From the IMG/VR virus record IMGVR_UViG_3300014502_000005, positions 1-64,000 of that record: a DNA stretch of 64,000 bases. One strand, 5' to 3'. This stretch comes from a virus. Both the position numbers and the translations under genes were made by a program. The notes beneath the pieces are model-generated. The model was not told the DNA's origin and did no database searches. It saw nothing but the letters and a program-made list of their open reading frames with translations. Positions 4,023 to 64,000 of this stretch are shown here, one piece after another. Position 1 is the stretch's first letter. Each line of letters begins with the position of its first letter.

Positions 4023-4787
4023 ATGATTATGAAGACAAGTGTTGTAATGAAAAGTACTGACAGGCTATTATTTGGGACTGTAATTAGGCAAGAAACTAAG
4101 ACCGGAATGCTTAATATTTCCGATTTAGAAGCTATTGCGGCTAAAAGAAATGCTTTAAAAGATTATTCAATAAAGCATATTAGTGAATTAATTTCAAGAA
4201 AAGAAAATCTTGAACGTATTTTTTATATTATTAAAAAACAAGATATTATAAACGTAGACCTGTCTACTTTTATAGGTAATGTTGAAAATAAGGGTATTAC
4301 AACTACATTAAAATCATTAGGTATATGGAGAACATCTGGCGCAAGACACACTAAGACATCATGGGCCAATCCTTATATATGGATGCTTTTAGCATTAGAA
4401 ATGAGCCCAGAAATATATGGAGAAGCTGTTGTATGGCTAAGCGATCAATTAATAGTAAATCGTATTGAAGCTGGGAATATGTATAAAGGATTAACAGGAT
4501 CAATATCTAAATTTAAGGATGTTGATTACATCAAACTCGCAAAAGCTTTAAACTATATTGTATTTAATAGGCACGAGGCGGGTATTCGTAATTCAGCATC
4601 AATAAAAGAGCTAAAGGAACTTGAGCAATTAGAAAGGCAAATGGCGTTTTCGATTGATTTTGGATATATTAAAACTTTTGACCAGCTTATTTTGGACTTA
4701 CGTAAAATATGGAATGATAAATGGAATAACCATAAGTATTTATTGCAAAAGAATGATAAGTCGGGAATGCTAAAACATGCTCTTTAA
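4023..4787 (+). CDS. KilA-N-like DNA-binding/regulatory protein
   Basis: IRQETKTGMLNISDL and GARHTKTSWANPYIW motifs; C-terminal helical GIRNSA...EL..LE region typical of Bacteroidota KilA-N proteins. Confidence 0.65.
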   Translation: MIMKTSVVMKSTDRLLFGTVIRQETKTGMLNISDLEAIAAKRNALKDYSIKHISELISRKENLERIFYIIKKQDIINVDLSTFIGNVENKGITTTLKSLGIWRTSGARHTKTSWANPYIWMLLALEMSPEIYGEAVVWLSDQLIVNRIEAGNMYKGLTGSISKFKDVDYIKLAKALNYIVFNRHEAGIRNSASIKELKELEQLERQMAFSIDFGYIKTFDQLILDLRKIWNDKWNNHKYLLQKNDKSGMLKHAL

Positions 4788-5403
4788 CATATTAACAAGG
4801 AAATATTATCCACCAATGGTAGGCAAGTTTTAAAATATCGTCTTGTAGGTATGTTAAAAAACATGTTTTAGTATAAAAGAGTCAAAAATAATTTGTATAT
4901 TTGTATGACAAACAATAGGGTATCACAAATTGTGATCTTTAAATAAGAAGCCAGGGATAAAGTTAAGGCAATAGAAAGTAAAAAGGATTAAAGATAAAAC
5001 TAGGCAATAAGTAAAGTAAGGGACAAACAAAAGGGCGGCCCGGGAAGACAATAAAAGATATAGACATCTTATATTATGAAGCTAAAATAACTCAAATTAC
5101 CTTTATACAATAAGACATATAGACAACATACAAACTTCAATTAAAAATATCCTTTCCTTAACATGCTAAATAACATATTATATAAAGAACCTGTGCAAAA
5201 AATAAAAAAGTTGCACACTTTTGTTGCGCAAATTTGCACAAATATAATCCATAGTTAACGTAATAAACATACATCAAATACACAGGAAAGAGTAATAACT
5301 AGGAATAGGTATCAGAAAGTACTCTCAAATTAAAAGTACTTTGAAATTCAAAGTGGATTGTATAAAGATTTGGGGGTTAATTGACATCTAATCCCTCGTT
5401 CAA

Positions 5404-5848: not shown

Positions 5849-6230
5849 GATGTATAATATTAAATGGTTACTTAAAGATAACCATATCATAGGTAATGTG
5901 CAAGTATTTATACATATATTATCATTCCAAAAACATGTTGTTTAACATATCCTAGAGTAAAACATCATGGGCAATCGGTCATGAGTGTTCCAAATATCGC
6001 CTTGTAGACATGCTAAACAACATGTTTTGGTATTAATATTGACAACTATACCTTAAAATATATGTTGAACAACATGTTTTTATTTCATTTCGACAACTTA
6101 TCGCTTTCGCTTTGATCTTTGATGAAGGTTGGTTGAATTGGTTTGTTTATATATATATGTGAAAATTAAGTTGTTGACGGGGTGGGGTTCGGCTTTTGTT
6201 GATTTGATATTCGTTTGATGCCCCTTGAAG

Positions 6231-38120: not shown

Positions 38121-38827
38121 TGGATACTCCAGGATATAGAACATTAAAGCAAATAGTCAAAGACATACACTTGGAAGGCGGATATGGTATGGAAAATTGG
38201 AAATACATAGGCCAGTTTGCTTTAAATGCCATTCGAGACCTTCATATGTTTCATACAAAACAATATAAAATTGCTAAAGTATTTGTAGATATTCAGACTA
38301 ATACTATCGATTGGCCGGATGATTATATCGGTTTCTGTTATCTTGGAGTTCCTCAAAACGGTAAACTATGCACACTCACAAGAAGGAATGAATTGATATC
38401 CACTACTACCTTGGTAAATGGGCAAGAAACATTAGACTTAAAACAAGGAGAAGGCGTTATATCTACAGAAGGCCAAACGTCTGGATATGGTGCTAAAGGA
38501 GGTATGAATGATTTTTATTATACAGAGGACGAAGCTAATAGAAGATTTTTTCTTGTAGGGGCTAATCCATTAAACGTCTTATTGGGATATATAAGTTCTG
38601 GCATAACAGATAAAGACACTATTGTTTCGATAAGATTTAAAGAACCTATTATAAATTATGTCCGTTGGAAACTTAAATTACGTGAACCTATAGATTATAA
38701 AGGAGCTGAATATTTTAAGGATATGTACGAACAAGAATGCAATAAATTAAGGGCTTTTGAAGATCCAACTTTAGATGAAATTTATGATGCTTTATTATCT
38801 GAATATTCTGGAACATATACAAGATGA
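38120..38827 (+). CDS. Tail ring/tubular protein 4
   Basis: WPDDYI...LG, LGYISSG motifs; position before muzzle. Confidence 0.6.
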   Translation: MDTPGYRTLKQIVKDIHLEGGYGMENWKYIGQFALNAIRDLHMFHTKQYKIAKVFVDIQTNTIDWPDDYIGFCYLGVPQNGKLCTLTRRNELISTTTLVNGQETLDLKQGEGVISTEGQTSGYGAKGGMNDFYYTEDEANRRFFLVGANPLNVLLGYISSGITDKDTIVSIRFKEPIINYVRWKLKLREPIDYKGAEYFKDMYEQECNKLRAFEDPTLDEIYDALLSEYSGTYTR

Positions 38828-41800
38828 GCGAAAAAGATATAAAAACATTTGGCGATATTTATCTGGATACTGATTCTGATCCAAAGATTAATAAAGGATC
38901 AGATTATGTATTAAATACAATAATACAATCAGATGGAAGATTTGGGGTAGCTGTAAATATAAAAGGTAACAAAGTGGTTACAGACCAATCTTTATTAGAT
39001 TCTATTTTTGTAAACCCAGACAGTTCTCCGATTAGGGTAATAGGATCGTGTAAAGATGAAGCTAGGAATAGGATTATATATTTTCTTTGTAATTCAGTAT
39101 CAGGGCATTTTAGTTCAGCCATTTTTTATTATGATATTTCTAATGGAGACAATAAGGTTATTTATAGCGATACAATTGATTTAACTAATTTAGATGAGCA
39201 TAATCATATAGGCGATAATTTTTTTCTTTTCGGATTAAATCAAACAGTTAGACATTGGGAAGGATTGGCTGTAGCCCCGAATGGAAATATTTATGCAGCC
39301 GCACAAACCGGAGATATATATCTACAAACTAATGGAACTGGAGATTTTGTAGCAACTGGCCAGACAACAAGAAATTGGCAACAAATGGCAGCCACTTCAA
39401 GTGGTAATATATATGCCGTAGCCATGAGTGGCGATATTTATATGCAGACTAATAGTACAGGTCAATTTGTATCTTTAAATCAAACAACTAAACATTGGGA
39501 AGCTATATCTATAGCTCTAAATGGAGATATATATACAATAGGGTACGGCGATATTTATAAACAAACTGGAGGCACCGGTAATTTTGTTGCATTGAACCAA
39601 TTATCTAATGTTTGGACAAGTATATCTGCCTCTCAGAATGGAAGTGGCAATATTTATGCCGTTAGGGTTGGTGTAGATATTTATATGCAAACTGGAGGGA
39701 CAGGAGATTTTGAGGCATTAAGCCAAGGCTCTAAACTATGGACAGGAATAGTTGTTGCCCCGAATGGTAATGTGTACGCAACAGCGATGTCTCATGATGA
39801 CATATATATGCAAACTTCAGGAGCTGGAAGTTTTGTTGGACTCGGAGACACAAGCCATAATTGGACTTATATAACAGCAACTTCAACTAATAATATTTAT
39901 GTTGTTACAGACAACGATGCTATTTATATGCAAACTGCCGGAACTGGGGCTTTTGTAGATTTAGCCGTTACGTCTAAAGCATGGAATGGAATAGCTGCGG
40001 CTCCGAATGGCAATGTATATGCGATTGCTTATAACATTAGCGGCGAAGATATTTATATGCAAACTTCTGGAACTGGTGATTTTAACCCATTAAGCCAGAC
40101 GCATAGGGATTGGGTTTCTATAGCTGCAGCTTCTAATGGAGATATATATGCAACTACATTAACAGGGGCTACTTATAAACAAACCGGAGGAACTGGTAAT
40201 TTCATAAGCCTAGGCGATACTTCTGATATGTGGATGGGCATAACTGCTGCCCCAAATGGGAATGTGTACGCTTCTGTTTACAATGGAGACATTTATAAAC
40301 AAACTGCCGGAACTGGTAATTTTGTAGCGTTAAATCAGACATATAGACAATGGACGCACATGGCCGCTGCGCCAAATGGCAATATATATGCATCCGTATT
40401 TGGAGGAGATATTTATATGCAAACAGCCGGAACCGGAGCTTTTATTGCATTAAGCCAAACAACTAGAAATTGGCAGGGATTAGCCGCCGCTTCAAATGGA
40501 GACATATATGCAGCTGTCCCTTTTGGGGACATTTATTTACAAACTGCCGGAACTGGTAATTTTGTGGCATTAAATCAAACAGTAAGATATTGGAACGCCA
40601 TGGCTGTTGCTGCCAATGGAAATGTATATGCGGATGTTATTGCTGGCGATATTTATACAAACATATTTAATTATGTATATGATGACGCAAAGGCTCTTAA
40701 TTTTAGCTACGATTCATTTATAACCGCCAATACAATAGGAGATTTATTATACTGGACAGATGGATTAAACCCTCCAAGAAAACTAAATTATATAAAAGCG
40801 TATAATCTTATTAATAACATAACTACTGACTATAAATATAGCACATTGTCAGTTGATATGATTGAGGCATATAAGCGGCCCCCTACTGAAAAAATAGGAT
40901 TGACATTATTAACATCTGCGAGCGAAATTCCCATTCGTAATAAAATATATCAATTTGCATATCGTTATGTTTATGATGATTTTGAAAAAAGCGTGTTGTC
41001 TCCATTTTCAGATGTAGTATTTTCGGATATAACAGCTTTTGCCGACGGAACTGTAACTTCTACATCAAGTATTTACGGAGTAAATCTGACTTTAAAATTA
41101 TATTATACGACAAATGGAACTTGGAATGATGTTGATTCGATAGAATTATTTGTTAGAAATAGCGATAAAGGCAATTGGTATTTATATGACAAAATACCTA
41201 ATCCTAAAAATGGATCAGGAGATACATTAACTTACTTGTTTAAAGACGATAAAATAAAACAAGAAGTAGATCAGGACGACCTAGGAAGACCATTTGATTT
41301 TTTGCCAAAGTTGGCAGGAACTCAAGAAATGATTGAGAAAGACAAGTTGATTTATGGGGATATTACGGAAGGGTTTGATAACATAGGTATAAATATAAGT
41401 TCTGTTGTTAATTTAACATTTGCCCATTTTGATGTGGGAGGCGGAACGGTTAGCACTATAGTTCCAAGGACTATTTCGTTGAAATTTCAAACATATGTTT
41501 CGGGATATACCTATAGCCTTATTTTAAAAATAGATGTAAAACAAACAGGAGCAAGCCCTAGAGATATTAGTACTAAAACAGTTAAGATAATATATAAAGC
41601 AGTTCCAGGGTCTACTGAATCGTCTATTTTGGCTAATATTAGGAATTTAATAAATGCTAATTTAAATTCAAACGTATTGGGATATAGTCGGGTGACAAAT
41701 TATGGTTCTGGAGTTAATTATATTGAGATGCCTATCGACTTTCTTACAAATAGTTCTCCTCCTACACATGAATATAGAGATATAAGTGATGTAAAGTCTT

Positions 41801-43839
41801 ATACGACAAATTTAACGTATAAGACCTTAAAATTTGGAGGGAATTATTTAGGAGGGATTCAGTATTATGACAAGGATTTAAGGTATTCTTTTATTCAAAA
41901 ATTTAATAATGACATTTTTGTTCCTAAATATTCTGATAGCACCTATCTTTCAGCTACAAATAATTATGTAGCTTCTTTAACCGTTTCGATAAAAAATAAA
42001 CCGCCAGAATGGGCATATTATTATGCTTTATGTTTTACAAAAAGAAATAATACAGGTATTTATTGGCAAATAAAAGCCTCTAAAGATATAGAATATTTTT
42101 ATGGAGCTAGTGATGGTTTTTTAAAAATAAAAGTTAATAAAATAATAAATCAAGAACACGACGATAATAAAAAATCAAATATTCCAACTTATATTTTTGA
42201 AGAAGGAGATAGGATTAGAGTTATAGGATATGGCACGACTATATACGACTTATTAGTACTTAACAATTCTTTTATAGATGAAAGTATTCTTGGCGTTGAT
42301 TATTTGTCAGGCGATTTATCATATAAAAAAGACGAATCTACAACTCCTGAATTTTTAAAAGATGCAAACGGGAATAAAGTTGTAGATGATTCATCATCTT
42401 TTATTATAACTCCTATTACTATTGATAAAATAAACCTTCCCTATGGGCCTATAACATCCTTGTTTTTTGAAATATATAGACCAAAAAAAGAAGCATCAAG
42501 CCCCTATTATTTTTCTACTTATTTTGGCACTATTGGGAACCCAGGAACGACTAATAATTATCATATAGGAACATCTCAAAATCAAGATCCAAATAATCCT
42601 GTAAATATACCAGCTATTGTAACTTGTAATCCTGGCGACACTTATTTAAAAGTTAGGGAACTAGAGTATACATTTATATGTACAGATGATAATTATTCGG
42701 ATTATTATAATTCAGATAGCTATGGGTTAGGGATGCCAAATATATTTAATCCAGACGCAAAAGAGGAACGATTAATTTCAGGCATGAGGAATTCAGGTTC
42801 TTTATTAGAGGATACTAAAATTAATAGGCTTAATCAATTTAAGTCGGCGGATTTGGAAATATTAAAGTCTAAATTTGGGGTTATTCATGTTTTAAGGGAA
42901 GTTGGAAATGTGTTAAAAGTACTTCAAGATAGAAAAGAGACTTCTATTTATATTAGTCGGACAGAAATGCAAAACGCTGATAATACTTCAAATGTAGTTA
43001 AATCAACAGCATTGTTGGGAACGGCTAATAAGTTTGATGAAGATAGAGGGACTGTTTATCGAAGATCGGCCATTGGTCATAATCGGGAATTATATTATTT
43101 TGATATTTATAGGGGCGAAGTTATAAGGTCAAGTCCTAATGGCCAATATCCTATTTCTGAATATGGGATGAGAACTTATTTTAAGAATAAATCACTAGAA
43201 TTATTATCTGAAGGGATAGAAAATATAGATGTTATTGCGTCATTTGACGAAGAAAATAAAATATATTTACTTACGTTCAAGGGTACGAACTCAGAGACTG
43301 TTGGATTTTATGATCCACAAATAGAAGGCGCAAAACCAAGATGGATAAGTTTTTATTCATTCATTCCAGAACATTATGAATCATTTGGATCGGCACTACT
43401 TTCTTTTAAGGACGGGATAGGTTATCAACATAATTCATCGAATGTAAATCGGACTACTTTTTATAATGTTAAACATAAACAACAGATTAATTGGTATTCT
43501 AATGTTGTTCCGATTATAAAGAAAATATTTAGAAGTATAGGCGTAAAATCTAATAAAGCATGGAGTATTCCAATTATATTGATAGAACCAGATGCTTCTT
43601 ATCCTAATGGGATGTTATCAAAATTAAATACAAATCATTTTGAGTTAAAGGAAGGTCAATATTTTGCCGACTATTTGAATAATATGAAAACTACTTCAAG
43701 CTCGGCATCTGTTTTGGATTTATTTAATGGTGATACTTTAAGAGGATATTATCTGCAAAACCAAATGGAAAATATAGAAAATGCAGAAGTATGGTTACTA
43801 TCGACTGAGGTTAATTTCGATCAAAGTAACAAATTTTAA
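38824..43839 (+). CDS. Tail muzzle/stabilisation protein with inserted beta-propeller repeats
   Basis: G...NIKGN, LLYWTDGLNPPRKLN, FAYRYVYDD.EKS..SPFS, WISFYSFIPE, KEG motifs; 12 repeats of ~40 aa. Confidence 0.8.
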   Translation: MSEKDIKTFGDIYLDTDSDPKINKGSDYVLNTIIQSDGRFGVAVNIKGNKVVTDQSLLDSIFVNPDSSPIRVIGSCKDEARNRIIYFLCNSVSGHFSSAIFYYDISNGDNKVIYSDTIDLTNLDEHNHIGDNFFLFGLNQTVRHWEGLAVAPNGNIYAAAQTGDIYLQTNGTGDFVATGQTTRNWQQMAATSSGNIYAVAMSGDIYMQTNSTGQFVSLNQTTKHWEAISIALNGDIYTIGYGDIYKQTGGTGNFVALNQLSNVWTSISASQNGSGNIYAVRVGVDIYMQTGGTGDFEALSQGSKLWTGIVVAPNGNVYATAMSHDDIYMQTSGAGSFVGLGDTSHNWTYITATSTNNIYVVTDNDAIYMQTAGTGAFVDLAVTSKAWNGIAAAPNGNVYAIAYNISGEDIYMQTSGTGDFNPLSQTHRDWVSIAAASNGDIYATTLTGATYKQTGGTGNFISLGDTSDMWMGITAAPNGNVYASVYNGDIYKQTAGTGNFVALNQTYRQWTHMAAAPNGNIYASVFGGDIYMQTAGTGAFIALSQTTRNWQGLAAASNGDIYAAVPFGDIYLQTAGTGNFVALNQTVRYWNAMAVAANGNVYADVIAGDIYTNIFNYVYDDAKALNFSYDSFITANTIGDLLYWTDGLNPPRKLNYIKAYNLINNITTDYKYSTLSVDMIEAYKRPPTEKIGLTLLTSASEIPIRNKIYQFAYRYVYDDFEKSVLSPFSDVVFSDITAFADGTVTSTSSIYGVNLTLKLYYTTNGTWNDVDSIELFVRNSDKGNWYLYDKIPNPKNGSGDTLTYLFKDDKIKQEVDQDDLGRPFDFLPKLAGTQEMIEKDKLIYGDITEGFDNIGINISSVVNLTFAHFDVGGGTVSTIVPRTISLKFQTYVSGYTYSLILKIDVKQTGASPRDISTKTVKIIYKAVPGSTESSILANIRNLINANLNSNVLGYSRVTNYGSGVNYIEMPIDFLTNSSPPTHEYRDISDVKSYTTNLTYKTLKFGGNYLGGIQYYDKDLRYSFIQKFNNDIFVPKYSDSTYLSATNNYVASLTVSIKNKPPEWAYYYALCFTKRNNTGIYWQIKASKDIEYFYGASDGFLKIKVNKIINQEHDDNKKSNIPTYIFEEGDRIRVIGYGTTIYDLLVLNNSFIDESILGVDYLSGDLSYKKDESTTPEFLKDANGNKVVDDSSSFIITPITIDKINLPYGPITSLFFEIYRPKKEASSPYYFSTYFGTIGNPGTTNNYHIGTSQNQDPNNPVNIPAIVTCNPGDTYLKVRELEYTFICTDDNYSDYYNSDSYGLGMPNIFNPDAKEERLISGMRNSGSLLEDTKINRLNQFKSADLEILKSKFGVIHVLREVGNVLKVLQDRKETSIYISRTEMQNADNTSNVVKSTALLGTANKFDEDRGTVYRRSAIGHNRELYYFDIYRGEVIRSSPNGQYPISEYGMRTYFKNKSLELLSEGIENIDVIASFDEENKIYLLTFKGTNSETVGFYDPQIEGAKPRWISFYSFIPEHYESFGSALLSFKDGIGYQHNSSNVNRTTFYNVKHKQQINWYSNVVPIIKKIFRSIGVKSNKAWSIPIILIEPDASYPNGMLSKLNTNHFELKEGQYFADYLNNMKTTSSSASVLDLFNGDTLRGYYLQNQMENIENAEVWLLSTEVNFDQSNKF
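39235..40662 (+). repeat. 12 tandem ~120-bp coding repeats (L.QT.R.W..(I/M)AAA.NGNIYA...GDIY.QT.GTG.FVA)
   Basis: Counted in the translated protein. Confidence 0.9.
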
Positions 43840-57870: not shown

Positions 57871-57891
57871 TATATATAGTAGTTATGTGGC
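57871..57891 (+). other. Array-proximal attI-like site TATATATAGTA-GTTATGTGGC
   Basis: Same motif starts the second array at 62601; no hairpin. Confidence 0.55.
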
Positions 57892-57892
57892 A

Positions 57893-58357
57893 TTAAAAGA
57901 GCCACGCTTTGACAATTTCGTATAGGTTTAATTTTAAGTGATACGAATTAATTATCACGAAAACTCCAAATACAAGTCCGATAACTGAATTTACCCAATG
58001 TAATGCCGTATATGCTGGGCTAAATTTAAACAGCTTACTTATTGGAGCTATTGCAATAAAATTAAAAGCAATTATCGCAATAAAAGCAACCCAATTAAAA
58101 GTTAATAAACCTGCAAACATCCATAAGGTAAATAGTAAACTTGGAAGTCCTCGACTAATTAAAACGTCTTTGTAATCTTGCGGATATTCATCCCACTTTT
58201 TGCCTTTGTTTTGCTTATTAAGCTCTTTAAATTTTTTAGATTTTTCAGTGTATTCAACTGGGCTTATTAGCCAAAGAACTTCATGTATTATAAAGCAAAT
58301 TCCGATAAAATAAAAAATGTGTTTCATTGTTATAATTTTTAAGTTATTAATATTCAA
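57893..58357 (-). CDS. Multi-TM membrane protein in gene cassette 1 (likely start ATG 58327)
   Basis: Hydrophobic; flanked by GTTATGTGGC / GCCACATAAC. Confidence 0.75.
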   Translation of the reverse strand: MNINNLKIITMKHIFYFIGICFIIHEVLWLISPVEYTEKSKKFKELNKQNKGKKWDEYPQDYKDVLISRGLPSLLFTLWMFAGLLTFNWVAFIAIIAFNFIAIAPISKLFKFSPAYTALHWVNSVIGLVFGVFVIINSYHLKLNLYEIVKAWLF

Positions 58358-58365
58358 TAATTAAC

Positions 58366-58504
58366 GCCACATAACCCGCGGTCATACGCAAAACGGGGTT
58401 TCCGTTCTCGTTGGATAAGGTATCTGTTTGCAAAGTGTCGTTCATCGTATTTAGTTTATCTGTTAATAATCCCCGTTCAGCGCATACCGCCACCGTTATA
58501 GGGC
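58366..58504 (+). repeat. attC-like recombination site
   Basis: AAC-CC-GCGGT[C]ATACGCAAAACGGGG ... CCCCGTTCAGCGCATACCGC-CACC-GTT; extrahelical G on the minus strand. Confidence 0.8.
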
Positions 58505-58699
58505 ATTTAAAACAAGCTTCGGTTCAAGTTCAGTAAATGCCTCGACTGTTATACCTTCTTTTAATTGCCATTCAGCATCATCATAGTATTCAATAGAATA
58601 CACATAATTGTTATAAACTTTAATTATGCACATATAATGAATACCATTGTAATTAGGCTCATTTTCTGGATATTTTTTAAAAACTTCATTTATATTCAT
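58496..58699 (-). CDS. DUF551-like small protein in gene cassette 2
   Basis: KKYPENEP...W....V.AF pattern; stop TAA within GCCCTATAAC. Confidence 0.65.
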   Translation of the reverse strand: MNINEVFKKYPENEPNYNGIHYMCIIKVYNNYVYSIEYYDDAEWQLKEGITVEAFTELEPKLVLNAL

Positions 58700-58715
58700 A
58701 ACTTAAAAATAAACA

Positions 58716-58754
58716 CCCTATAACAATAGGTCATAAAACAGCAGGGCGTATTTG
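58716..58754 (+). repeat. Truncated attC-like site (left arm only)
   Basis: CCCTATAAC-AA-TAGGTCATAAAAC; complementary to cassette start GTTATAGGG at 58495. Confidence 0.6.
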
Positions 58755-59216
58755 CTATTCGTAACCTTTTGCATCTAATTGATGTAGTCTTTCTCGATAT
58801 TTGTTTTTTAAATATCCTTTCTTTTGAAAAAACAAATCCCAATTTGCTGTATATTTATGGTCTTCATTATAAGCTTCTCGATGATCAGAATCCCCATGGT
58901 CTAATAGCCTATGTTCCTCTGGAGACATAAGCATGATGTTTTCTTCTTCTATTATAAATAGAGGGTAATTTTTTTTATCTAGTACATGCGCGAACAGCCA
59001 AATAAAAAAAGGTGTATTGTAGTATTTATCTAAAGGCCCTCCGCTTAATTCTGACACGTGAGGCCTAGTATTCCATATTTGGTCAAATAATGCTAATTGG
59101 CCTGTATTCTTAGGAAGGATGACTTTTTTAATTTTAGGCTTCCATTTGTAATGAAACTTACAAATACCATGACTGAAAACAGGATTGCTACAATTTGGAT
59201 GAGTGCAAATTTTCAT
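58755..59216 (-). CDS. HNH-like nuclease with N-terminal zinc finger
   Basis: CTHPNC...C..H; FAHVL...ENI...EEH..D. Confidence 0.6.
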   Translation of the reverse strand: MKICTHPNCSNPVFSHGICKFHYKWKPKIKKVILPKNTGQLALFDQIWNTRPHVSELSGGPLDKYYNTPFFIWLFAHVLDKKNYPLFIIEEENIMLMSPEEHRLLDHGDSDHREAYNEDHKYTANWDLFFQKKGYLKNKYRERLHQLDAKGYE

Positions 59217-59542
59217 TTAATAGCTGGTCTATGATAACAACTATAGGTAGGCATTAAATCTGATCCTAATCTTATTTCATGATATAAGATAGGGCTTATA
59301 TTAGTAATTGTGATGTACTTATCTTTATCTATATTTAATATCCCCCACAAAATACCGTCTGAAGAGATTAAAAAATCGGATATATGTATTGGAGCATCTA
59401 GTTTTATTTTTAATGTATATATCCATTTTACTTCCGGAATTATTTTGAATATTTTACAAACTATACGTTGAATGAAAGTCAAGTTTAATACCTTAACTAT
59501 ACCTTCGGTATTTTGATAAGTTATTTTAAAAATGTTTTCCAT
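59213..59542 (-). CDS. Hypothetical protein
   Basis: 109 aa ORF. Confidence 0.6.
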   Translation of the reverse strand: MENIFKITYQNTEGIVKVLNLTFIQRIVCKIFKIIPEVKWIYTLKIKLDAPIHISDFLISSDGILWGILNIDKDKYITITNISPILYHEIRLGSDLMPTYSCYHRPAIK

Positions 59543-59548
59543 AAATAT

Positions 59549-59839
59549 TTAATTTTTATTTATTGGTTTAAAATTATCAATGTTAATTTTATTTATGTTA
59601 ATCAAATCGTCACTAATCAGTCCTTTTCTAAGTAAAAATTTAACTTTCCATTTAACAACATCTCTTTTAGCTTTACTTAATTTACTTGTCTTATTTTGAA
59701 TCAATTTATATTCCTGAATGACATCGAGAACGTCTTTGTCTATTTCTTGTTTTTGTTCTATTTGTTCCTGTTTTGGTATCAACCAAAATACGGCGAATAT
59801 TACGCCCATTGCCGTTATTAATAGTAGAAACGTCGTCAT
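59549..59839 (-). CDS. Membrane-anchored hypothetical protein
   Basis: N-terminal TM; EYKLIQNKTSKLS..KR motif. Confidence 0.65.
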   Translation of the reverse strand: MTTFLLLITAMGVIFAVFWLIPKQEQIEQKQEIDKDVLDVIQEYKLIQNKTSKLSKAKRDVVKWKVKFLLRKGLISDDLININKINIDNFKPINKN

Positions 59840-59841
59840 AT

Positions 59842-60024
59842 TTATTTTAATAAAATGTTAACTCCTCGTTTTTTTGGGATTACTTTTCCTAGTACTTCTT
59901 CTATTTCTTCGTTTGTAACACATTCGTGCTTGTTACAAAGTCCAACTTTATAATTATTAGTATCTCTAATAATAGTGGCTTTACTTAAGCAATAAGCACA
60001 AAGTTCCTTAGTTATTTCTAGCAT
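59842..60024 (-). CDS. Small Cys/His (zinc-finger-like) protein
   Basis: CAYC...LCNKH. Confidence 0.55.
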   Translation of the reverse strand: MLEITKELCAYCLSKATIIRDTNNYKVGLCNKHECVTNEEIEEVLGKVIPKKRGVNILLK

Positions 60025-60245
60025 TTAAATAAATCTTGTATAGTTACTTTTTCGCTTTCGGGAGCTATCTCCCATTCTAAAAAGTCTTTTTCAGTTACTT
60101 CTACAGGGCAAACAGGACTTAGCCCGTATCTTTTAGTGCTTAGGATAACGCCTGTTTCGAAAAACCCTTTAAATATTCCTATTTTGCCTGTTTTAGGGTC
60201 AATAACCTTGGCGTTATAGGGGTCTTTTAAATCTTTTATTTGCAT
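60018..60245 (-). CDS. Hypothetical protein
   Basis: 75 aa; TAACTTTG promoter at 60257-60264. Confidence 0.6.
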   Translation of the reverse strand: MQIKDLKDPYNAKVIDPKTGKIGIFKGFFETGVILSTKRYGLSPVCPVEVTEKDFLEWEIAPESEKVTIQDLFKC

Positions 60246-60313
60246 TGATTTTTATTCAAAGTTAAATAGTATGTGGGTAATAATAAAATAATAAGATATG
60301 TTGTGCAACACTT

Positions 60314-61597
60314 TTAGAATTTAAGTCCTATTTTTTCTGATTTATCTAGTTCTTCTTGCACTTTATCTAGTATTCTTGTATTAAACACAAGATCATGTCC
60401 TTTAATTTGTTCTACGCATTTAATTATCTTTTTATAACAATCTTCTAGCGAATCTCCAGCAGCGACTATGTCTAACGCTTCTGAAGATTGAGAAGGCTGA
60501 GGAATTAGGTAATACGTTCCTTTAGATTTCATTCCAAAACGAAACTTAACGTTATTTCTTATTTCTTCTGGGAAGTAAATGGGCAAAAAATTTTCTCTGA
60601 GGAAATCTGAATTACCAATTAGGATCACTCCATATTCATGAGTAAATTCAGGTTGAATTAAAATACCTTCTGCCCCAGACCAAATTATTTGGGCTAAGTT
60701 TTTTATCATTATTAATTGTAATGACAAGGGGGGTGCTCCGGCCCTACAGGTCTGATCTATAACGTAAGGGACTTTCTTTTTATCTATCCTAATTTCATTA
60801 GAATAAAAGTTACAATATTGTTTTTCCTTAAAATACCAAGACAAATTATCGGTACATAATTTTATTGGTTTTGGCAATTTAGCGTATTCAAATACTTTTG
60901 CTGCATAACATTGGTCCTTAATCTCGATACCGCTCAATACCTTGTCAGGTATTTGGCCGTCTATAATAATAGTATCTATACCAGTTTCTACAATACAATC
61001 AACAGGAGTTTCTACAATAAATTCTGTTATCTCTTTTATGGCCCCTAGCTCATTTTCAAGATGAGTTAATAACGGTTCTGATAGTTTATAGGTATCGTGC
61101 TTAAAACTCTCAAACAAACCTCTCCAATGGGATATTTTAATATAAAGTTTATCATGTGATTTTAAGTATTCTTTTAATTTAGTTATGCCTTTTATTTTGA
61201 TGGTTTTATTTACAGGCATATTGCTTTTGGTCATTATTCTTTTAGAATCATATCGATCTAATTCTAGCCATTGGCCTTCGCCAGAACCAAACACCCGCTT
61301 ACCCATAGATCGAAGCAATCTTTCTATGTCCGAAAAGTAAAGTTCGGGGAAAATGAAAATATCAACTTTATCGAAATTGTAGTCTGAATTTTTATCTGAA
61401 GTAGAAAATAAGTAATCAATAGAATTTATTTCTTCAAATCCTACGCCAGATAATTCAGGAAATCTATCGGGGAACCCTCCGTAATTCCAAGGTGTAAAAT
61501 AGTAAACTTTTTGGAATAATTTAGATAACGTGATAGCTAATTCTACGAACAGGCCGCAATCACAAACAACGGCTATTTTATTTTTTAAATTTTCCAT
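60314..61597 (-). CDS. ATP-grasp enzyme (PurD/GARS-like fold)
   Basis: VFGSG....LELDR...K, LYIK....RG..ESF, FIVE, GIE.KD, IDQTCR.G.P. Confidence 0.75.
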   Translation of the reverse strand: MENLKNKIAVVCDCGLFVELAITLSKLFQKVYYFTPWNYGGFPDRFPELSGVGFEEINSIDYLFSTSDKNSDYNFDKVDIFIFPELYFSDIERLLRSMGKRVFGSGEGQWLELDRYDSKRIMTKSNMPVNKTIKIKGITKLKEYLKSHDKLYIKISHWRGLFESFKHDTYKLSEPLLTHLENELGAIKEITEFIVETPVDCIVETGIDTIIIDGQIPDKVLSGIEIKDQCYAAKVFEYAKLPKPIKLCTDNLSWYFKEKQYCNFYSNEIRIDKKKVPYVIDQTCRAGAPPLSLQLIMIKNLAQIIWSGAEGILIQPEFTHEYGVILIGNSDFLRENFLPIYFPEEIRNNVKFRFGMKSKGTYYLIPQPSQSSEALDIVAAGDSLEDCYKKIIKCVEQIKGHDLVFNTRILDKVQEELDKSEKIGLKF

Positions 61598-61977
61598 TAT
61601 ATTTCATAATTTTCGTAATAATCACTCCATTCCAATCCCATCTCATAACATAATTGCCTTTCTATATTTTCAGCAAAACGATGTTCTCGACGATATATGC
61701 AATCTGGCTCATTACCTGCATCGTCTGCCTTTCCGCCAACTTCTTGAACCTTTCTATCAAACGCATCTATGTCCTCCTCTTTAATCCCTCTCATATTTGT
61801 CAAGTGTTGTTCTATCATCTCGTGAAGTGCAATTAGCCAAGCATGATCATAAGAGGCTTCATCTTTTAAGTATGCCTTAATTATTATAACATCTTTATTT
61901 ACAAAATAGTAGTCTCCAATGCCGCCATTTCTTATCTCATTAGGATTATTTGTAAATTGTATACGTATTTCTTTCAT
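61597..61977 (-). CDS. Small putative metallohydrolase (HExxE...H motif)
   Basis: GDY...LIALHEMIE...Y.REH.FAE.IER; coupled to the ATP-grasp gene. Confidence 0.6.
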   Translation of the reverse strand: MKEIRIQFTNNPNEIRNGGIGDYYFVNKDVIIIKAYLKDEASYDHAWLIALHEMIEQHLTNMRGIKEEDIDAFDRKVQEVGGKADDAGNEPDCIYRREHRFAENIERQLCYEMGLEWSDYYENYEI

Positions 61978-61996
61978 CTAGCAAAGGTATGTATTT

Positions 61997-62515
61997 TTAT
62001 ATTGGATTTATGCACCCAAAAGTTTCTATCATTATCCTGTCTATAGACCAATGCAAAGTCTGGCCATCTTTATGTAAGTGTAAAAGGTTATTAGTAGGTG
62101 TTTTTTTAGATCCTTTCATTAAGATTGTTTTGCCTGATTTCCTTTTTATCATTCTCGTCATACTTCTTACGTTTCTTAGTGTAGAAACTTGATAATATCC
62201 TTCATAGCCAGGAATATCTTTCCAAGTTTCCTTTAGGATATTTTTTAAGTTTTCTATGTCTTCCGAATCCTTAGCATATAAGCTTGTCATTGCAATAACC
62301 TTTTTTATGGCTGCGTTTACAGAAGTTCGAGTTCTTCCTGCTAATTTTAGCCCTATCTCATCGTTTGACCCAACCTTAAACGCCTTACATAAAAACATTG
62401 CTTTTTGTCGGGCCTGGACTATTTCTCCTTTTTTTGTGGGAATGTTCAGCTCCCCAGGAACCATATTAAAGTATTTTTCAACTTCATTTTGTATTTTATC
62501 TATAGTTACTATCAT
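61997..62515 (-). CDS. DnaA C-terminal-like HTH fused to a NUMOD4 motif
   Basis: TIDKIQNEV..YF...IVQARQ.AMFL...IG...GR..TSV..A; ETWKDIPGYEGYYQVS. Confidence 0.75.
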   Translation of the reverse strand: MIVTIDKIQNEVEKYFNMVPGELNIPTKKGEIVQARQKAMFLCKAFKVGSNDEIGLKLAGRTRTSVNAAIKKVIAMTSLYAKDSEDIENLKNILKETWKDIPGYEGYYQVSTLRNVRSMTRMIKRKSGKTILMKGSKKTPTNNLLHLHKDGQTLHWSIDRIMIETFGCINPI

Positions 62516-62600
62516 AAATTAATATTTAAGTTTTTGATCACAAATCTTTAAAATTTAATCGTGCACAATATTAATATTTAAATAATTATATGTAAAATTT

Positions 62601-62624
62601 TATATATAATAGTTATGTGTAACC
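62601..62624 (+). other. Array-proximal attI-like site TATATATAATA-GTTATGTGTAACC
   Basis: Matches the 57871 site. Confidence 0.55.
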
Positions 62625-63023
62625 TTAAACGGCTACCGTGGATAGTCTTTCCTTAATCTGATTTGAGTTCAATATTTCGTCAAATCTAATAATAGAATCA
62701 ATCATCCATTCATAACCACAAAAACCAGCAGAGTTTTTTCTTCTTTTATTGGCTTCTTTGGCATCAACTTGTTCAATCCTAACATTTGCACCCCAACCAT
62801 CACCAAAGTTATAATAATGGCTTTTACTTGGTGGAGTATTACCAATTTCTCGTCTGGTAAAAAAGCCTTCATAAATCGGACTTGTTTTAGCATCTTCCAT
62901 TATTTTGTCAGCAGTTTTATTGTCGAACTTTCTAATAACAAAATATTTGCGTTCTGCGCCTGTCCATTTACCATTCCAACTACCTACATTTGGCATCGTT
63001 AATTCAAAAGATAATGTTTTCAT
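62625..63023 (-). CDS. Hypothetical protein in gene cassette 3
   Basis: MPNVGSWNGKWTG...GDGWGA...GFCGYEWM; flanked by GTTATGTGTAACC / GGCTACACATAAC. Confidence 0.8.
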   Translation of the reverse strand: MKTLSFELTMPNVGSWNGKWTGAERKYFVIRKFDNKTADKIMEDAKTSPIYEGFFTRREIGNTPPSKSHYYNFGDGWGANVRIEQVDAKEANKRRKNSAGFCGYEWMIDSIIRFDEILNSNQIKERLSTVAV

Positions 63024-63059
63024 TTTTATAGTTTTAAGTTATTGATAATCATAATAAAA

Positions 63060-63201
63060 GGCTACACATAACACGCAATATAGTGCATGTGGGCTGTATC
63101 GGTTATTGAAAGTTTCTACATTCTATTATCGTTTGTGGTGGTTTGATAGGTCGGTGCTATTAATCCCACACGACACCATATTGCCACCGTTAGCGGTTAT
63201 T
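63060..63201 (+). repeat. attC-like recombination site
   Basis: AAC-AC-GCAATATAGTGCATGTGGG ... CCCACACGACACCATATTGC-CACC-GTT. Confidence 0.8.
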
Positions 63202-63561
63202 AAGCCAGCCATACACCAACCTGCGAAATTCTGCATCTGATTGTGTGCATCGTAATTTTTGAACATCTAATTTAGATAAGTCTGGACAATAAGCTGTTAT
63301 TAATGCTTTCCAGCAATCCCTATAAGTTTGAGCCTTTGCATGAAATTTTATAGAATGTTGTTCCAATTTAGCTGTATCTCCAAGTTCATCGTATTTTCGT
63401 TGAAGTCCCTGCCAACTATTAATAAGTTCTTCAACTGCTTTTATTCGCAATTGCTTATTTAGTTCATTTATTTGCTCAGAATAACTAAGTTCAGACGTAT
63501 CACAATTAACATCCGCCTTAATAGGCGTGTACCTTGTATTTTTAAGTTTGTGCGTTCCCAT
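63190..63561 (-). CDS. Hypothetical protein in gene cassette 4
   Basis: Stop TAA within AACCGCTAAC. Confidence 0.7.
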   Translation of the reverse strand: MGTHKLKNTRYTPIKADVNCDTSELSYSEQINELNKQLRIKAVEELINSWQGLQRKYDELGDTAKLEQHSIKFHAKAQTYRDCWKALITAYCPDLSKLDVQKLRCTQSDAEFRRLVYGWLNNR

Positions 63562-63569
63562 AAATTTAA

Positions 63570-63884
63570 TTATTTAAAATATTCACACGTTTTACAAAAG
63601 TTTTTACTCTTAACAAAGCGACTGCACGCAGATTTATATGGCCAATTACAGATTTTTATTTTAGTAATATCTCCATTAAACCTCCAAATCTGCTGCATGT
63701 GGTCAAACCAAATCTGTATATTATCAACAGAATAATTGTTTTTTACGCAATATTCATCTATTTCACTTATAGTTGGTTCTTTATCAGTCATGCCTTCAAT
63801 CCACATCTCATGCGGTTGAGTTCTATATGTTACATTTTCATCTTGTATATTCATAATATTTTGATTTAAAATAAATAATAACAA
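63570..63884 (-). CDS. Hypothetical Cys-rich-tail protein in gene cassette 4
   Basis: C-terminal C...C...CKTC; likely start at MNIQDEN. Confidence 0.65.
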   Translation of the reverse strand: MLLFILNQNIMNIQDENVTYRTQPHEMWIEGMTDKEPTISEIDEYCVKNNYSVDNIQIWFDHMQQIWRFNGDITKIKICNWPYKSACSRFVKSKNFCKTCEYFK

Positions 63885-63980
63885 CCGCTAACACCGTATA
63901 TAAAACATGGCTTGACAGGTTCGTGCTTACTTGAAACATTCGAGCAAAGCCACGTTTCATATACGAACCGTTAGTTGCCA
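63880..63980 (+). repeat. attC-like recombination site (short loop)
   Basis: AAC-AC-CGTATATAAAACATGGCTT ... AAGCCACGTTTCATATACG-AACC-GTT. Confidence 0.8.
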
Positions 63981-64000
63981 TTTAAAGAAACGTATTCATC

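Follow-up and report, generated by a model that had tools for sequence, protein, structure and literature searches.

The analysed window comprised the first 64 kb (positions 1 to 64,000) of the 76,236-bp virus record IMGVR_UViG_3300014502_000005, rated complete by CheckV, and the elements under study are imperfect hairpins that separate small genes at its right-hand end. Our reading, to which we give a probability of roughly three in four, is that these hairpins belong to integron-like arrays with a fixed site polarity, in which phage cassettes carry their genes on the bottom strand of the site and chromosomal cassettes on the top strand, and in which the phage cassettes feed the leftward operon of the phage. 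Comparisons of sequence support the identification of the hairpins as attC-like sites of a gene-capture system with an Xer-like recombinase, common in Bacteroidota and their phages. The evidence thus supports a system of a known kind that is new in its phage gene strand, the cassette genes lying systematically on the bottom strand; a description of such systematic placement in phage arrays was not found in the literature.

A scan of the whole record returned 10 attC-like sites, all of one build and one orientation: three in the window (A1, B1 and B2), where the initial annotation had placed them, and seven past its end (coordinates in the table below). On the plus strand the layout was the same at 10/10 sites: a YYYTAAC box, 2-3 nt, stem, loop, stem, 4-5 nt (mostly xACC) and a GTTRRRY box. 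All 10 are imperfect hairpins of 85-127 nt with 2/4-nt spacers (left/right), stems of ~19-21 bp, RYYYAAC/GTTRRRY boxes and an unpaired spacer, as in attC sites. Because of loops of ~70 nt, whole-site folding z-scores were weak for the long sites, and the arms were scored alone instead. In the three window sites, 6 of the 7 stem mismatches were A.C on the plus strand, i.e. G.T on the minus strand, at two per site, which agrees with the mismatch pattern described initially; the seventh (A.A on plus, T.T on minus) lies in A1. The A.C mismatches are conserved at stem positions 8 and 13. Both strands were folded, as the initial annotation had proposed: with DNA parameters (site plus or minus 3 nt) the minus strand was more stable at 10/10 sites, by 1.5-4.5 kcal/mol, and with RNA parameters the preference held at 9/10 sites (mean 4.4 kcal/mol) and failed at B1 (63066).

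Between 57893 and 64000 every open reading frame (ORF) of at least 60 aa that was not nested in a longer one was on the minus strand, as had been claimed for the cassette genes, and comparable ORFs were absent from the plus strand. The minus strand in fact carries every sizeable ORF from ~57.9 kb to the end of the record. All cassette ORFs are on the bottom-like strand of the sites, and the classical arrangement, with the gene on the attC top strand and read away from attI, was not found. The start of the first gene of array A (57893-58357) faces A1, i.e. the hairpin lies upstream in gene sense. At the other end of the genes, the stop codons at 58496-58498 and 63190-63192, previously reported to sit in the GTT-end box, coincide with the TTA of the right-hand GTTA box, as does a further one at 63971-63973; in the whole genome, the crossover-box TAA terminates a frame of 68-172 codons at 6/10 sites.

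For comparison, one genome per prokaryote species was scanned with an alignment of the recombinases, giving 80 Bacteroidota loci, and viral contigs gave 80 more loci. The initial annotation had proposed that the cassettes are inverted relative to classical integrons, and had named a shared ORF orientation in host-chromosomal copies as the observation that would speak against it. The two sets proved to be opposite: genes of viral arrays upstream of the recombinase were 235 antisense and 9 sense to the top-like strand (antisense majority in 58/59 loci), and those of the arrays that follow the recombinase in chromosomes (26 Bacteroidota loci, including the Flavobacteriales ALC-1, Aquimarina and Maribacter) were 56 sense and 2 antisense. 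The marks of site polarity were the same in both. The bottom strand was the more stable at 224/233 viral sites (mean -2.44 kcal/mol) and at 55/56 chromosomal sites (mean -2.30 kcal/mol); A.C on the top strand occurred at stem positions 8 and 13 in 36-57% of the 235 phage sites and 37-41% of the 56 chromosomal sites, with G.T on the top strand at ~0%; and a short and a long spacer and common oriented loop motifs were found in both sets. Phage-type arrays within bacterial contigs adjoin a phage primase, head protease or terminase and lie in prophage-like DNA. In a tree of the recombinases (mafft alignment, FastTree; midpoint-rooted, support not assessed), most of those associated with phage-type arrays formed one large clade apart from the chromosomal ones, with two bacterial-contig loci (L042 and L078) outside it.

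That the sites recombine is indicated by their boxes. Perfect 7-nt box complements run across gene segments from an attI-like site to B1, B2 and B3, from another to C1, C2 and C3, and from the attI-like site at 57882 to A1 and on to the truncated site at 58719; the latter was missed by the hairpin scans and was read directly from the sequence. The four variable box positions were fully matched across a segment in 132/198 viral and 38/55 chromosomal pairs, versus 29/322 and 6/133 within one hairpin. A pattern of this kind, with core sites specific to the cassette, is the signature of integrons.

The left end of each array is a hairpin-less attI-like site joined straight to a gene segment, and a hairpin between the two was never present. 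The reference copy lies directly upstream of the recombinase start (genome 67540-67558) and ends TATATATAATA-GTTAT. The motif of the array A site (57871-57888) matches that of this copy and of the copy at 62600-62618, in a shorter version, and its GTTATGT is the exact complement of the A1 left box ACATAAC. The array B platform (62521-62618) is 85% identical over 96 nt to genome 67461-67556, which holds the true recombinase start and its attI-like site, and 77% identical to genome 74912-75003, where a second decayed recombinase stub was found; in the three platform copies the likeness stops within the GTTAT box.

The recombinase itself (275 aa, Xer-like tyrosine recombinase, genome 66709-67536, minus strand) is encoded 2.7 kb past the window end, beside array C. 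It matches Pfam PF00589 and PF13495, and it matches Xer models at 130-170 bits, below their equivalog cut-offs. The XerA model scored 170 bits and the IntI model TIGR02249 156.5 bits in two stretches (cut-off 265), both below cut-off, and NF011946 scored 107 bits (cut-off 435). The IntI insertion is absent, with only ~24 residues between YLFNGQ and HLLRHS. In structure comparisons IntI4 (2a3v) aligned over residues 27-186 only, and the best solved relatives were the XerA structures 4a8e and 5hxy. The protein hence differs from IntI-type integrases in lacking the domain that binds extrahelical bases. No recombinase is encoded within the window, yet at genome scale the arrays differ from a CALIN, a cluster of attC sites with no integrase nearby.

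Related arrays were found in the cultured, near-identical Polaribacter phages Freya_1 to Freya_10 (MT732463-MT732472), whose recombinase is 39% identical to the one described here. These isolates are distinguished by inserted blocks of small genes (up to about a dozen) that lie immediately upstream of the recombinase, and all junctions read YYAAC followed, immediately after the C, by the same ACCCCTATAAC sequence. When the Freya genomes were scanned for hairpins with exact TAAC...GTTA ends, none were found; with relaxed AAC...GTT ends, family hairpins were detected. In Freya_10, family hairpins of 126 nt, with spacers 5/3 and 5/2, start right after two of the three internal junctions examined. 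The differences between the isolates look like recent gain and loss of cassettes in a culturable phage-host pair. The paper describing the Freya phages gives genomes of 44.0-48.9 kb and does not mention integrons. Terminator-like hairpins of these phages had been considered as recombination sites and were dropped after the relaxed scan; an extra block of ~440 nt was also noticed in Freya_6 that is missing in Freya_10.

The orientation of the sites could in principle have been misread, with the plus strand being recombined in phages, the crossover in the left, short-spacer box, and the gene followed by its hairpin as in classical cassettes. Such a reversed polarity is quite improbable, even though the box chain is equally compatible with it. 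It is suggested by the stop codon within the TAAC box next to the hairpin, which resembles a classical gene followed by attC, and by the bulges of B1 and B3, which lie on the arm that it predicts; one Logan contig also joins a left flank to another hairpin at the left TAAC, in a data type in which joints are ambiguous. It would, however, put the hairpin-less attI-like sites on the wrong side, with the platform homology ending in their GTT box, and no array has a hairpin between the attI-like site and the first gene segment. Flanking sequences also speak against it: among 438 oriented hairpins of relatives, pairs at least 85% identical that share one flank only had the top-5' flank in common by 9 to 0. 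In one aligned pair the homology starts exactly at the AA/C of the long-spacer box (the slash marks the crossover point) and continues through the hairpin into the first codons of the gene. Moreover, the two Freya_10 junctions lead directly into a family hairpin, and chromosomal arrays with identical markers carry their genes on the other strand. Homologous gene segments shared between arrays gave just 2 informative pairs, both in the direction predicted by the fixed-polarity reading.

Box chain aside, four lines of evidence agree and support the plus strand as the top strand and a crossover in the right-hand, long-spacer box (G/TT on plus, AA/C on minus): the attI-like sites at the left of the arrays, the one-flank pairs, the Freya junctions and the spacer lengths. 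As to the last of these, a 4-nt spacer on the cleaved side would give a central region whose length is more usual for a tyrosine recombinase than the 2-nt side. In IntI integrons only the bottom strand is bound and cleaved, according to the available text of PMC3458562, and by analogy the minus strand is presumably the one that is folded and cleaved here.

The initial annotation had also allowed that the hairpins act as RNA structures. Under this explanation they would serve mainly in the leftward mRNA (processing, stability or termination), with the G.U-compatible mismatches reflecting selection on the transcript, and we give it slightly less credit still than a reversed polarity. The coding strand is indeed the better-folding strand in the phage, each hairpin lies between a stop codon and the next start codon, and the RNA parameters favour the minus-sense strand as described above. 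However, a wobble polarity of the same size was found in chromosomal arrays, in which the G.T strand is the non-coding one (55/56 sites); since the bias is equal in both sets, it follows the polarity of the site and not the coding strand, and is a feature of the DNA and not of the mRNA. No T run follows the hairpins, no Rfam family matches them, and the box chain, the platform copies and the insertions and deletions between isolates indicate recombination of DNA. A secondary RNA effect may nevertheless exist in phages.

Least credible is the view that the arrays are inert, functionally meaningless relics of host arrays acquired in the 'wrong' orientation: array A does end in a truncated site followed by 3.8 kb of hairpin-free genes, and two attI-like platforms bear decayed recombinase stubs, but the orientation is the same in 58/59 viral loci having a recombinase, most recombinases of these arrays fall in their own large clade in the tree described above, compact minus-strand ORFs abut the boxes with no comparable ORFs on the plus strand, no cassette protein was common to the sampled phage-type and chromosomal segment sets, and whole cassettes at the attI-like site distinguish the Freya isolates from one another, which implies recent activity.

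Other identities of the hairpins were considered and rejected: intrinsic terminators, for want of a T run, and hairpins of the REP/RAYT or IS200 type, since the box chain and the attI-like sites agree with a cassette system of the tyrosine-recombinase type.

Several observations weigh against the fixed-polarity reading with bottom-strand phage genes. The labels top and bottom were assigned by analogy with IntI integrons, and the box chain, being symmetric between the strands, supports recombination only and cannot set the polarity alone. The one-flank pairs amount to ~4-5 independent events. Spacer-based and energy-based polarity conflict in 72/451 detected hairpins, some of which are probably detection errors. 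Canonical extrahelical bases are lacking in most sites, and B1 and B3 have their bulge on the other arm. The extrahelical G that had been put forward as a strand argument was recovered at A1, on the 3' arm of the minus strand, and is valid for that site; as a family feature it failed, a 3'-arm extrahelical G being present in 2/10 sites of the genome, 2/235 phage-type sites and 2/56 chromosomal sites. Single-base bulges of any kind were found in 36/235 phage-type and 28/56 chromosomal sites, on inconsistent arms. Read in gene sense, neither the hairpins nor the stretches before and after them were enriched in the Bacteroidota promoter motif TAnnTTTG, and the 10 sites of this genome contain none. 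Finally, Logan contigs of four DNA runs contain joints at hairpin edges with 20-34 nt on the shorter side, which are ambiguous and were not used as evidence.

The following mechanism would account for these data. The two A.C mismatches become G.T wobbles on the bottom strand, so that only this strand would make a good hairpin. Strand asymmetry would thus arise from two G.T wobbles together with the unequal spacers, a proposal made because extrahelical bases show no conservation and the domain by which they are read is missing from the recombinase; strand choice would then probably be set by wobbles and not by extrahelical bases. Cassettes would be cut and joined in the long-spacer box (G/TT on top, AA/C on bottom), and new ones would enter at the simple attI-like site that adjoins the recombinase gene on its 5' side. 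In gene sense, a phage cassette would consist of a C, the long spacer, the hairpin, the short spacer, GTTRRRY, a leader, the gene and YYTAA; a chromosomal cassette, like those of classical integrons, has a top-strand gene first and its hairpin after it. An inserted phage cassette would land immediately upstream of the recombinase and in the same direction, and would so join the leftward replication and early block, in which DnaB is also encoded. Reading of the cassettes by leftward transcription, as proposed in the initial annotation, is plausible, and co-transcription with the phage operon would be the purpose of the arrangement. For their expression, read-through from upstream would be the simplest assumption, given that the promoter motif was not found in the cassettes. 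A broader proposal, for which we regard the odds as even, is that Bacteroidota phages run a mirror-image platform of their own (hairpin first, gene on the recombined strand; wobbles and spacer, no IntI domain), with a cassette pool not productively exchangeable with that of their hosts, and that this platform is active in Freya.

Like classical integrons, these arrays have imperfect hairpins with RYYYAAC/GTTRRRY boxes, halves of which are swapped between neighbouring cassettes; an attI-like site adjoins the recombinase gene at its 5' end, cassettes are newly inserted beside that gene (as seen in Freya), and one strand folds better than the other. They differ from them in a recombinase that lacks the IntI insertion and scores below the IntI cut-offs, in extrahelical bases that are not conserved, in a strand asymmetry that comes from two conserved G.T wobbles and unequal spacers, and in phage genes that occupy the bottom strand and run in the direction of attI and the recombinase. 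Because of this direction, a Pc-type promoter at attI could not drive the phage genes.

The rAID-1 elements of gut Bacteroidales are also similar. As described in the available text, they consist of an XerD-like tyrosine recombinase beside an array of small genes with repetitive, integron-like intergenic sequences, and were defined in chromosomes with immunity genes; that text contains no strand analysis of the repeats (10.1101/471110). The chromosomal relatives found here resemble rAID-1 in having the recombinase first and co-directional genes downstream (L063, L073, L041 and others). The phage likewise has an Xer-type tyrosine recombinase beside its array, but this array is upstream of the recombinase, with genes antisense to the site polarity, and co-directional genes downstream were not found. 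Integrons with an inverted, co-oriented integrase are known as well (PMC4889954). The phage arrays share with this Treponema type the common orientation of recombinase and cassette genes. They are built differently: in the Treponema type the integrase is flipped and the genes are on the attC top strand, whereas in the phage the recombinase keeps its classical position relative to attI and polarity and the cassette genes are flipped. It is the chromosomal relatives that resemble the inverted-integrase layout.

Clusters of attC sites without integrase have been reported between small genes of phages, including Polaribacter phage P12002L, one site of which recombined with attI1 via the bottom strand; the available text of that study notes 'divergent directions' of the sites and does not mention a systematic inversion of genes (Qi et al. 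2023, PMC9892861). Those phage CALINs lack an integrase and were found with classical attC models, whereas the present genome has its own recombinase and attI-like sites.

Among Bacteroidota contigs with the same hairpin and recombinase families, three layouts were observed: recombinase then sense cassettes (many Flavobacteriia and Cytophagia), classical divergent, and phage type (antisense, upstream). The classical divergent one, in which the genes are sense, is that of a Balneolaceae locus (L098). In the recombinase-then-sense layout (L063, L073, L049), an attI-like site of the form TATATA...ATT-GTTRRRY lies after the stop codon of the recombinase.

Integrons are the model case of directed gene capture: which way a captured gene points is determined by the geometry of its site. 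The arrays described here offer one site family in two mirror-image cassette forms, chromosomal and phage, which allows a test of how a site encodes the choice of strand when the IntI domain and extrahelical bases are both lacking, and of whether gene orientation separates phage and host cassette pools. They suggest that general recombination is not the only route by which phages shuffle their small early genes, and that site-specific recombination is another; anti-defence functions are often found among genes of this kind. The Freya phages and their Polaribacter host would provide the experimental system, in which cassettes have already been gained or lost beside the recombinase between isolates.

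Table. Attachment sites, attI-like sites and cassette genes of the arrays (coordinates marked genome lie past the window end; the slash in G/TT marks the putative crossover point)
Feature	Coordinates	Strand	Remarks
attI-like site, array A	57871-57888	plus	TATATATAGTA then G/TTATGT; putative crossover 57882/57883
First cassette gene, array A	57893-58357	minus	TTG start 58357, ATG at 58328; weak CvpA-like membrane protein (PF02674, E 0.003, below cut-off)
Site A1	58369-58501 with boxes; scan 58372-58498		Left box ACATAAC, right box GTTATAG; spacers 2 nt / CACC; stem ~21 bp; minus strand with two G.T wobbles, one T.T mismatch and extrahelical G on 3' arm
67-aa cassette gene	58496-58699	minus	TAA stop = TTA of A1 right box; putative crossover G/TT at 58495/58496
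Truncated site, end of array A	58719-58750		Left box CTATAAC (complement of A1 GTTATAG) and left arm, without right arm
attI-like platform copy, array B	62521-62618	plus	Decayed recombinase 5'-end stub and upstream region, ending TATATATAATA G/TTATGT
First cassette gene, array B	62625-63023	minus	132 aa; no Pfam family
Site B1	63066-63195 with boxes; scan 63069-63192		Boxes ACATAAC / GTTAGCG; spacers 2 and 4 nt; two A.C (plus) = G.T (minus); extrahelical T on minus 5' arm
Second cassette of array B, gene 1	63190-63561	minus	123 aa; stop within B1 right box
Second cassette of array B, gene 2	63570-63884	minus	104 aa
Site B2	63886-63976 with boxes; scan 63889-63973		Short 85-nt class; boxes CGCTAAC / GTTAGTT; minus strand with two G.T wobbles; bulge absent
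171-aa cassette gene, 3' end	63971-64000	minus	Starts at genome 64486, past window; TAA stop in B2 right box
Site B3	genome 64481-64604
Site C1	genome 67830-67953
Site C2	genome 68434-68518
Site C3	genome 68774-68897
Site D1	genome 72730-72845
Site D2	genome 73443-73530
Site E1	genome 75393-75515

Further observations were made on the sites and their surroundings. The hairpins of the B2 region (63871-63989) and the C2 region (genome 68414-68534) are 88.5% identical, and the genes running into B2 and C2, of unrelated lengths, have similar last residues (SLNGN and SLNWL, each directly before the stop); at these sites the cassette boundary region seems to contribute the last few codons of the genes. 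A1 and B1 (58316-58379 and 63013-63076) have in common an AT-rich leader of ~45 nt (79% over 67 nt) despite unlike stems, located between the left box of the hairpin and the ATG of the next gene. In a Logan contig from another sample, a similar leader is fused to a B2-type hairpin. The -7 motif TAnnTTTG was present on the top-like strand within 22% of hairpins in the phage and chromosomal sets alike; relative to the genes it is antisense in phages and sense in chromosomes. In Logan data of the likely source sample, unitigs break exactly at hairpins B1, B2, C1, C2 and D1. A groundwater metagenome (X9) contains many related pieces (88-99% identity) whose neighbours differ, so that other habitats also have related cassettes in circulation.

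In the remainder of the window, a large terminase and a portal protein are encoded. When 18 kb of the window were searched by megablast against a phage collection, no match was obtained. Long palindromic repeats of CTAAAACATG...TTTAACATAT lie at 4770-4871 and 5928-6082, in a leftward region; they differ in kind from the cassette hairpins and could be an origin or an operator cluster. Multiple internal DNA repeats (~65-71% identity) at 39234-40663 are contained in a 1671-aa ORF (38824-43839), probably a repetitive tail or fibre protein. In the hairpin-free stretch that separates arrays A and B, a 172-aa protein (61997-62515, minus strand) combines the C-terminal helix-turn-helix of DnaA (PF08299, E 2.9e-14) with a NUMOD4 motif (PF07463, E 3e-10).

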